A DNA stretch of 51,977 nucleotides from Candidatus Adlerbacteria bacterium RIFCSPLOWO2_01_FULL_51_16 (lineage in GTDB: Bacteria > Patescibacteriota > Minisyncoccia > Phycocordibacterales > SBAW01). Positions 49,537 to 51,977 of the stretch are shown piece by piece; position 1 is the stretch's first letter, and the number at the start of each line of letters is the position of its first letter. A program made the translations under genes and the position numbers. The stretch covers positions 1 to 51,977 of the forward strand of contig MEWX01000026.1 in NCBI GenBank assembly GCA_001775485.1, written 5' to 3'. The notes under the pieces are model-generated. The model ran no database searches and was not told the origin of the DNA. It worked only from the letters and a program-made list of their open reading frames with translations.

Positions 49537-49598
49537 AATGCCCTCAATTATACATCCAAACCTGAAGCCCTCATGAATGTGCGGGCAAGAGTTATGGG

Positions 49599-49682
49599 TG
49601 CCGGAGAGAGGATTTGAACCTCCAAGCCCTTGCGAGCACTACGACCTGAACGTAGCGTGTCTACCAATTTCACCACTCCGGC
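49599..49682 (-). tRNA. tRNA-Leu(CAG)
   Basis: GCCGGAG acceptor stem, TGGTAG D-loop, CTACG-TTCAGGT-CGTAG anticodon arm, long variable arm, GGTTCAAATCC. Confidence 0.95.
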
Positions 49683-49708: not shown

Positions 49709-50113
49709 CTATTCAAGCAAAGATTGCTTGACAGCCGCGCAGTCGTCGAACATGGGTAGGTTTTTTAATTCTTCTTTTGGGACCCACTGCCATTCCTCTA
49801 CCTCAGTAGGATCAATAACGAGATCGAGGGTGTCACAGGTGCAGGTATACGCGATAAACACCTGATGCATATTGCTTTTGTAGTGAAAGGAGGGTTCGAC
49901 TCGAAACGGTTTTACATTTTTAATATCAAGACCAAGCTCTTCCTTAATCTCGCGAACTATCGACTCTTCAGGAGCTTCGCCGGCATGGAGGCGACCACCG
50001 GGAAACTCCCAGACAGTGTCTCCTATACCACGGCAAACCAAAATTTTTCCATCGCGTATGATGATCGCCTTCTGCGCAACATTACCAACAAAAAGTTCTT
50101 TATTAATTGCCAT
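49709..50113 (-). CDS. NUDIX hydrolase
   Basis: WEFPGGRLHAGEAPEESIVREIKEELG Nudix box. Confidence 0.9.
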   Translation of the reverse strand: MAINKELFVGNVAQKAIIIRDGKILVCRGIGDTVWEFPGGRLHAGEAPEESIVREIKEELGLDIKNVKPFRVEPSFHYKSNMHQVFIAYTCTCDTLDLVIDPTEVEEWQWVPKEELKNLPMFDDCAAVKQSLLE

Positions 50114-50114
50114 G

Positions 50115-50186
50115 TGCGAGCGGAAGGGATCGAACCTTCGGCCTTCCCCTTATCAGAGGGATGCTCTACCACTGAGCTACGCTCGC
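50115..50186 (-). tRNA. tRNA-Ile(GAT)
   Basis: GCGAGCG acceptor stem, AGCTCAGTGGTAGAGC, TCCCT-CTGATAA-GGGGA, GGTTCGATCC; CCA is not encoded. Confidence 0.95.
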
Positions 50187-50431: not shown

Positions 50432-50878
50432 ATGGAAACTCAAAGTGCGCTTCCGAAAATCAAAAGCGCCGCACTAGACGCTCTTGAAGGAGGCGACGCT
50501 GCTATACGCAGCGAGTATGAAAAAAGTGGTGCATGGGGGATGTTGACCTCTATAGACATCCACGGGTGCAACCCGGAGACCATCCGCTCTGCGGATGAGA
50601 TAAAGCGGTTCGTTGTGGAGCTATGTGACCTCATCAAAATGAAGCGCTTCGGCGAGTGCACGGTTGTAAATTTCGGTGAGGATGAAAAGGTGGCCGGTTT
50701 CTCGATGGTTCAACTTATCGAGACCTCCTGCATCAGCGCCCACTTCGCAAACCAAACAAACACGACCTACCTAGATATCTTCTCGTGCAAGTGCTACAGC
50801 CCCGTAGAGGCGGCAGAGTTTGCCAAAGAGTTCTTCGGCGGCTCCGACTACACGATGACCTACACCCTCCGAAAGTAG
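50432..50878 (+). CDS. speD: S-adenosylmethionine decarboxylase proenzyme
   Basis: WG....D.HGC, GFSMVQLIETSCISAHF, YLDIFSCK. Confidence 0.88.
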   Translation: METQSALPKIKSAALDALEGGDAAIRSEYEKSGAWGMLTSIDIHGCNPETIRSADEIKRFVVELCDLIKMKRFGECTVVNFGEDEKVAGFSMVQLIETSCISAHFANQTNTTYLDIFSCKCYSPVEAAEFAKEFFGGSDYTMTYTLRK

Positions 50879-50900: not shown

Positions 50901-50928
50901 AAACCCCGACCGCAAGCGGTCGGGGTTT
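50901..50928. terminator. Bidirectional intrinsic terminator
   Basis: aaaccccgaccgc-aa-gcggtcggggttt. Confidence 0.8.
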
Positions 50929-51109
50929 ACTCTATTTTGTGCAACCACCAGAATGGCGGTGGCATATAGAAAAGAGGGTTCGCAGCGGCAAACCACAGAC
51001 GCCAGAGCTGCTCGGTGTTGCTCGTTGTCACGCTGAACCACATTGAAAGAAAGTCAATTCCTGGGGCTTGCTGATGCAGGCCCGCCGTAGCGAACTCATC
51101 CTGCGTCAT
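50927..51109 (-). CDS. 60-aa Trp/Pro-rich hypothetical protein
   Basis: ATG 51109 is preceded by GGAGG; terminators flank the ORF. Confidence 0.55.
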   Translation of the reverse strand: MTQDEFATAGLHQQAPGIDFLSMWFSVTTSNTEQLWRLWFAAANPLFYMPPPFWWLHKIE

Positions 51110-51147
51110 GACAAACCTCCGTTCTGTCCACTCTAATCGTAGCACGC

Positions 51148-51214: not shown

Positions 51215-51418
51215 TCAGTCCCACCACTTCGCGTTTTTAAGCTTGGGCATCGTGAGCGTAAAACGGACAACGGTCCATACAACGGGAACGAGCATGATCG
51301 TCAGGATGATCCCCGCAAACCAGGTCGCCGCCGTATTGCCTTCGCCTATTTCAGCAGCCAAAGGCGGAATCCAGAAGAGCATCGCGATAGGGCCTATGAC
51401 TCCCAAAAGATAAGTCAT
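51215..51418 (-). CDS. 67-aa two-TM hypothetical protein
   Basis: GGGAGG upstream of the ATG, a TATAGT -10 element, and two hydrophobic helices. Confidence 0.7.
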   Translation of the reverse strand: MTYLLGVIGPIAMLFWIPPLAAEIGEGNTAATWFAGIILTIMLVPVVWTVVRFTLTMPKLKNAKWWD

Positions 51419-51539: not shown

Positions 51540-51793
51540 TGAGCATTGACACACTTTCAGAGAATTATCCTTCACCCCAAGGGGTTCAGGATCGTCTAGA
51601 AGACGACCTTTCTCTTGTTCCGTTCGGCTTCGCGTTCCTCCCGTTGTACTCAACGGGTACTGGCGAAACCTCTAGTCCCTAACGGTTGGGGGGGCGTACC
51701 GAGTGCAATTTGGGATTAGCACTATCATCCGAGTATCTTGCGATACCCATCGCCATTCAGTTCTATCGTCAATTGAGCGATAGAACGCATTTC
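51540..51793 (-). ncRNA. Structured 3' trailer or extension of 16S rRNA (unassigned)
   Basis: At least six hairpins plus the long-range pairing UGGCGA/UCGCCA; no ORF. Confidence 0.45.
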
Positions 51794-51977
51794 ATTTGAA
51801 TTATTCCACGACCAGCTTCCGCTAGCCGTGCCTTGTTACGACTTACTCCCTGTCACCGAGTTTACCGTGGTCCCCCTAAGGGAACTTCGGGCACTCCCGG
51901 CTTCCTTGAGTTGACGGGCGGTGAGTACAAGACTTGAGAACGTATTCACCGCGGTATAGCTGACCCGCGATTACTAG
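51794..51977 (-). rRNA. rrs: 16S rRNA, 3' end (partial; exact 3' terminus uncertain)
   Basis: Minus strand reads CTAGTAATCGCG...GGTGAATACGTTC...CTTGTACTCACCGCCCGTCA...AAGTCGTAACAAGG, then helix 45 ACGGCTAGC-GGAA-GCTGGTCGT-GGA. Confidence 0.98.

Follow-up and report, generated by a model that had tools for sequence, protein, structure and literature searches.

A probable pseudoknotted trailer domain inside the leader-trailer helix of pre-16S rRNA in Patescibacteria lacking the anti-SD

The hairpin-dense block that follows the 16S rRNA gene on the minus strand of the window (the whole stretch of DNA analysed, 51,977 nucleotides) is, on the evidence of sequence comparison and folding, quite probably a lineage-specific, pseudoknotted pre-16S trailer that lies inside an ordinary processing helix, is likely removed and would occur in the precursor only. 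The window corresponds to contig C26 of a 92%-complete genome of 608,701 bases (G000). The first 410 nt (5') of the 16S are found on contig C12 and the middle of the gene is unassembled; we infer that the leader on C12 and the 3' end in the window belong to one 16S copy. Some 70 nt of 16S sequence (338-360 region) occur a second time at the contig end C12:1-150, probably through an assembly artefact. The 23S-5S genes lie on C12, on the same strand, and precede the 16S 5' end by about 8.3 kb. The 16S is therefore unlinked; to this extent the block does stand in place of an ITS/23S, as the original prediction had it. A 16S apart from the 23S-5S is in keeping with the account of Patescibacteria in the part of Brewer et al. 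(10.1101/705046) available to us. Together with the small genome size and the lost anti-SD, the unlinked genes suggest a placement in Patescibacteria, Paceibacteria/Parcubacteria. The features of the region are as follows.

51977-51794, minus strand: 16S rRNA 3' end, last 184 nt (model positions 1335-1533; Rfam RF00177, 141.7 bits); the contig end truncates the gene
51830-51807, minus strand: helix 45 of the 16S, followed by a tail without the anti-SD CCUCC
51791-51805, minus strand: tail with a short proximal pairing element, placed where anti-SD-bearing relatives have their anti-SD-masking hairpin
51786-51760, minus strand: trailer hairpin A, with compensatory changes in the genus alignment
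51754-51749, minus strand: conserved motif GGCGAU (family pattern G-N-Y-G-R-U)
51748-51731, minus strand: trailer hairpin B, of variable length, with covarying pairs and present in the MFE fold
51730-51702, minus strand: H-type pseudoknot PK1, overlooked in the original prediction
51701-51677, minus strand: candidate tandem pseudoknot PK2 (51701-51698 with 51686-51683; loop C's with 51679-51677)
51675-51671, minus strand: strand of the proximal leader-trailer helix, CUAGA, pairing with leader UCUAG (G000:C12:414-418; probability 0.83-0.95 in the co-fold)
51670-51626, minus strand: side arm with an AGUA / GAA internal loop and an AGUA-capped hairpin (outer helix probability about 1.0)
51625-51606, minus strand: trailer strand of the main leader-trailer helix, a 20-bp duplex with leader G000:C12:420-439 and predicted RNase III substrate
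51605-51559, minus strand: genome-specific distal part, which holds the near-repeat of the tail and in which the co-fold continues the pairing with the leader on either side of a small hairpin
51536-51513, minus strand: terminator-like hairpin with a weak U-tract (4 U) on the transcribed strand

All segments quoted in the original prediction were recovered at the places given, on the minus strand and immediately 3' of helix 45 in a 16S that ends without CCUCC, and the claim that the block is hairpin-dense was borne out, as the 336-nt region folds better than 100/100 dinucleotide shuffles (z = -4.91). A DNA search of related genomes matched 48 of 61, with many congeners aligning well into the trailer, and also returned our own C12:420-446, which is the 16S leader on the opposite strand. 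The comparison with relatives that had been proposed as a check revealed a conserved, covarying and co-transcribed structure after the 16S 3' end. Counts are given for 78 order-level trailers, with L032 (a duplicate of L030) and L048 (truncated) left out. One related genome (G209) carries a second 16S 3' end at G209:C6:258-296 that is not of the Paceibacteria type and is possibly contamination.

Of the 79 order-level loci, 32 extend as far as the leader, and the leader-trailer comparison was carried out on these. A leader-trailer helix with compensatory changes (20-36 bp, score at least 18) was present in 31 of the 32 loci reaching both ends, the exception being L026, with a helix of 12 bp. 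In G000 the complementarity flanking the 16S extends over 20 bp, the threshold for such a helix being at least 17 bp. Several helix columns contained more than one pair type, so that leader and trailer covary. Columns of the distal helix were paired at 0.93 within genomes vs 0.67 across genomes, although setting the register by best pairing favours the within-genome figure. Leader and trailer co-folded gave -140.8 kcal/mol, while apart they gave -99.7 and -25.5 kcal/mol, a gain of about 15.6 kcal/mol. Two domain-closing helices of the original prediction were lost in this co-fold: UGGCGA/UCGCCA dropped to a pair probability of 0.0 once the 16S leader was included, and AGAGAA/UUCUCU likewise fell to 0.0, the AGAGAA strand being taken up by the leader with a probability of 1.0. 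The warning attached to that prediction, that its stems might be the processing stem formed with the 16S leader, proved correct for the GACUAGAG segment and, within the block, for its distal third.

The proximal strand CUAGA (51675-51671) is the segment previously described as 'group I R-like'. A counterpart of the proximal helix was found in 13 of 14 congeners with differing sequences, at a mean score of 13.4 for self pairings vs 9.8 for cross pairings. The AGUA/GAA module of the side arm, whose internal loop we take to be loop-E/sarcin-ricin-like, was detected by pattern in 14 of 23 congeners; some congeners are devoid of the arm, and where it is missing (e.g. L002, L010) the proximal and main helices run on unbroken. 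The leader strand C12:430-460 is modelled to fold back on itself into a hairpin as long as the trailer is untranscribed, which might act as a strand-displacement switch, and a leader self-hairpin was seen by eye in L002, L013, L014, L015 and L018.

Between helix 45 and the leader-trailer arm lies an inner domain in the order hairpin A, G-N-Y-G-R-U motif, hairpin B and H-type pseudoknot. The distance from helix 45 to the leader-trailer arm ranges from 111 to 255 nt with a median of 156 (69 of the 78 loci, those with an arm pattern found). Relatives upheld hairpins A and B as well as the AGUGC/GCACU and CCCGUUG/CAACGGG pairings of the original prediction, although AGUGC/GCACU turned out to be stem 2 of a pseudoknot rather than a plain hairpin. 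The covariation of hairpins A and B extends to positions changed on both sides, as at column pairs 24/44 (9 of 23 congeners) and 28/40 (11 of 23) of hairpin A, and in the motif GGCG and the final U are invariant in 23/23 congeners. An AGGUCG-like variant of the motif occurs in some anti-SD-bearing Patescibacteria. Pairing of G-N-Y-G-R-U with the 16S 5' end or its 915-925 region was considered by eye and dropped because the second position of the motif varies and the 16S does not. The tips of the trailer hairpins are often self-complementary (CUCGUACGAG, CUCAAUUGAG, CUCGAUCGAG; in the window at 51777-51769, and in L002, L024, L029, L062 and L065); these tips belong to hairpin A in this genus and to hairpin B in other families, and may represent a protein site or a dimerisation loop.

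In PK1, stem 1 is formed by 51730-51727 with 51716-51713 and stem 2 by 51723-51719 with 51706-51702, plus 51717 with 51708. Across 23 congeners 98.7% of 230 cells were paired and 8 of the 10 pairs were changed on both sides; none of 500 shuffles scored as high, and slid controls gave 18-55%. PK1 thus covaries within the genus, in a test where it was named after inspection of the sequences and where the congeners are kin rather than independent samples. An unguided pseudoknot finder was too permissive, tending to pick long hairpins whose second stem arose by chance, and an anchored search took its place. This search omitted trailers that were identical or short and 22 in which the motif or hairpin B was missing. 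The anchored search recovered PK1 in 23/24 congeners (2.0 expected), in 34 of 61 other anti-SD-less trailers (3.7 expected; one from another order) and in 6 of 20 scored anti-SD-bearing Patescibacteria (1.9 expected), with 19 more of the latter being without the motif. The last count is small, and among its calls L093, L103 and L108 look spurious. A pseudoknot-like element was also observed in the trailer of L086 (G379), which is anti-SD-bearing and has a linked 16S-tRNA-tRNA-23S operon.

The second pseudoknot is likely present in the genus. PK2 scored above threshold in 21/23 congeners vs 5.5 expected, those below being this genome, where its second stem is only 3 bp, and L006. A previous, unconstrained search had failed to separate PK2 from shuffles (mean 23.1 vs 19.6), and the test is post hoc because the search window was narrowed after inspection. 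The C7 loop of the original prediction falls inside PK2.

CCUCC was found in 0/78 order-level tails vs 30/30 tails of other Patescibacteria. The loss of CCUCCU from the 16S 3' end in a subgroup of Parcubacteria, which our sequences share, has been reported by Tsurumaki et al. (2022, PMC9297842); in the portion of that paper available to us the sequence 3' of the 16S is not discussed ('downstream', 0 occurrences). By homology, the mature 16S 3' end would be expected near 51795. A proximal hairpin was scored in 51 of the 78 order-level tails (shuffles expect 34.0) and in 29 of 30 anti-SD-bearing tails (8.5 expected); in this genome the element at 51791-51805 is weakly supported as a hairpin and, in the fold model, may pair instead with 51759-51755.

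The proposal that a UCUCU repeat at the end of the block mimics a displaced anti-SD did not survive, since the repeat occurs in 1/78 trailers and the genome displays no SD enrichment. GGAGG precedes 5 of 510 long ORFs vs 3-9 in control windows, while TATA/TATACT-like words 4-18 nt before starts were present in 75/510 vs 21-27 in controls, with start codons called mechanically for this count. This suggests that leaderless starts are widespread in this genome, and with GGAGG not enriched and TATA-like words enriched there is no demand for a displaced anti-SD. Two small ORFs 3' of the 16S, 51215-51418 and 50927-51118, both on the minus strand, each have a strong GGAGG before them and a terminator-like hairpin after them, even though this genome shows neither an anti-SD nor SD enrichment; neither ORF had a Pfam match. 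SD-led small ORFs 3' of the 16S were also seen by eye in L008, L022, L023, L030, L034 and L043.

With regard to the terminator said to follow the block, the hairpin is present, but the terminator scan passes it on the plus strand only, with 4 U on the transcribed strand. Similar hairpins with U-runs after the leader-trailer arm were seen by eye in relatives. Further behind the trailer, at 1.4-1.9 kb, lie tRNA-Ile(GAU) (50114-50186) and tRNA-Leu(CAG) (49597-49682); in several relatives a tRNA-Ile stands close after the trailer, which we read as a remnant of the ancestral spacer. Genes for an S-adenosylmethionine decarboxylase (50432-50878, plus strand) and a NUDIX protein (49709-50113, minus strand) are also near the 16S.

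The genome encodes RNase III (PF14622, 137 bits) and YbeY (39.4 bits), and RNase J, an RNB-family nuclease and RbfA were over cut-off, so that nucleases of rRNA processing are at hand. Era, which binds nt 1530-1539 during 3' maturation according to the part of PMC13000453 available to us, was not over cut-off in this 92%-complete genome. RNA-library contigs of relatives span helix 45 and 146-174 further nt (depth 3-27; length 186-236 nt); they derive from three groundwater RNA runs of one study and represent relatives only (best share 0.22). Most of the trailer had no cover, which is due to sequence divergence and carries no weight as evidence. The trailer is joined to the 16S in these libraries, in contigs that do not separate precursor, mature RNA and DNA carry-over.

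In the processing scheme that we favour, the leader would be held in its own hairpin until the trailer strand, once transcribed, displaces it with the gain of about 15.6 kcal/mol given above. The ends of the pre-16S would then be clamped by the proximal 5-bp and the distal 20-bp helix, RNase III would cut the distal helix, and an endonuclease would remove the inner domain of about 170 nt near 51795. The weakest step is the one in which the pseudoknots and the GGCGAU motif would compact the long trailer and hold off 3'-5' trimming until assembly of the 30S platform is complete; that the pseudoknots compact and protect the trailer until trimming is probable. The motif-hairpin-pseudoknot layout recurs in some CCUCC-keeping Patescibacteria, in which the anti-SD should mark the mature end, and this counts for removal. 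The trailer also behaves as a spacer, because its length varies (111-255 nt) and its loop sequences turn over freely. Against a disposable trailer, the pseudoknot is kept across many families, more than a spacer would suggest, and against trimming stand the failure to find Era in this genome, the continuity of the relatives' RNA contigs past helix 45 and the small count of anti-SD-bearing pseudoknots.

The same observations bear on a possible minority reading, in which RNase III cuts the leader-trailer helix, the inner trailer is left untrimmed and the mature 30S keeps a pseudoknotted 3' extension of about 180 nt (120-250 nt) at the mRNA exit site. Here the tandem pseudoknots would stop 3'-5' exonucleases once Era and the anti-SD had gone. 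The order-wide conservation of the pseudoknot, the absence of the anti-SD from 78/78 order-level tails, the failure to find Era, the RNA contigs unbroken from helix 45 through the trailer and the TATA-like, probably leaderless rather than SD-led, starts all speak for retention; yet a similar domain exists in anti-SD-bearing relatives, YbeY, RNase J and RNB are present, turnover of length and sequence is high, part of the domain pairs with leader nucleotides due for removal, and the RNA contigs give neither ends nor levels. On balance we regard retention as rather unlikely. Release of the inner domain during processing as a stable small RNA with a function of its own is a good deal more doubtful: the modular fold, conserved motif and pseudoknot, and its presence in RNA-library contigs, are what such an RNA might offer, but it has no Rfam family, is single copy and bound to the 16S, and its primary sequence is little conserved beyond one 6-nt motif. 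The two helices that lock the block to the leader also make an independent ncRNA unlikely.

Least probable of all, and largely refuted already, is the idea that the 16S 3' end carries a self-cleaving ribozyme or a degenerate group I intron and that a tail is restored when this is excised. What had invited it was a near-repeat of the tail (51570-51559), together with words in this genome that loosely resemble P, R and S. The near-repeat GGAUAAUUCUCU, GACUAG and GUGAAGGA were each found in 1/78 trailers, namely the window's own, so that no conserved 3' exon follows the supposed insertion, and the GACUA..UAGUC pairing (P7 R/S) was found in 0/78. The group I-like core suggested for the block had no group I or II model match and formed no P7, RF00028 was without a match genome-wide, and the R-like word pairs with the leader. 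An Rfam scan of the block at E up to 10 yielded no family, RF00028 included (best matches E 3.3-7.9, far below gathering scores), and 12 relatives' trailers gave no match at E 0.05; intron cores are thus absent, and the degenerate intron falls with them, its duplicated tail being unique to this genome. HDV-like ribozymes have nested pseudoknots, whereas those of the trailer are in tandem, and no splice-type joints were seen in the RNA-run contigs, which cover relatives only. Introns are frequent in CPR rRNA genes, as stated in the portion of PMC11270868 available to us, and the trailer resembles them as a structured RNA at a CPR rRNA locus, but it differs in having no catalytic core, no following exon and no model match. 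Identity with 5S rRNA, tmRNA or RNase P was rejected, as these lie on C12, C7 (tmRNA) and C14 (RNase P motif).

The leader-trailer helix is a known kind of element, while neither Rfam nor the literature searched yielded the pseudoknotted inner domain. In the cyanobacterial ITS, too, the 16S 3' end is immediately followed by a variable structured domain within the spacer, the D1-D1' helix, to which the trailer is alike in position; D1-D1' is a single helix, and we know of no pseudoknot in it. In the available text of two studies, leader-trailer helices are described as essential in E. coli (Warner et al. 2023, PMC10250234) and as ubiquitous, being reported from every phylum tested and accompanied by trailer-trailer helices that vary (Gemler et al. 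2024, PMC11404451). As in the bacterial hLT of these papers, we find a long duplex (20-36 bp vs 25-40 bp in Enterobacteriaceae), covariation in a variable part, a near-invariant core, extra side helices and RNase III. In contrast to the E. coli hLT as presented there, where the critical trailer strand lies about 6 nt past the mature end (1548-1570), the strand here is 111-255 nt past helix 45, and whereas the side helices are on the leader in E. coli, here a domain with pseudoknots is inserted in the trailer. The words 'pseudoknot' and 'Patesci' have 0 occurrences in the main text of PMC11404451, whose supplements may hold models of these taxa. Unlike the link drawn between unlinking and RNase III loss in the part of Brewer et al. 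(10.1101/705046) available to us, RNase III is kept in this genome. No described trailer or 16S 3' extension of Patescibacteria was found in our literature search, outside which lay most subscription papers and the PMC11404451 supplements.

What is added here is a pseudoknot domain that is order-wide, has the support of covariation and lies within the leader-trailer helix of anti-SD-less bacteria. Were the inner trailer retained after all, a long 16S 3' extension would be new for bacteria within the literature searched, and such an extension at the mRNA exit site might help leaderless initiation or replace lost 30S assembly factors. Published surveys have found these bacteria to be without many 30S assembly factors, and the trailer is a concrete object on which to ask whether, in CPR ribosomes, assembly proteins have given way to precursor RNA.
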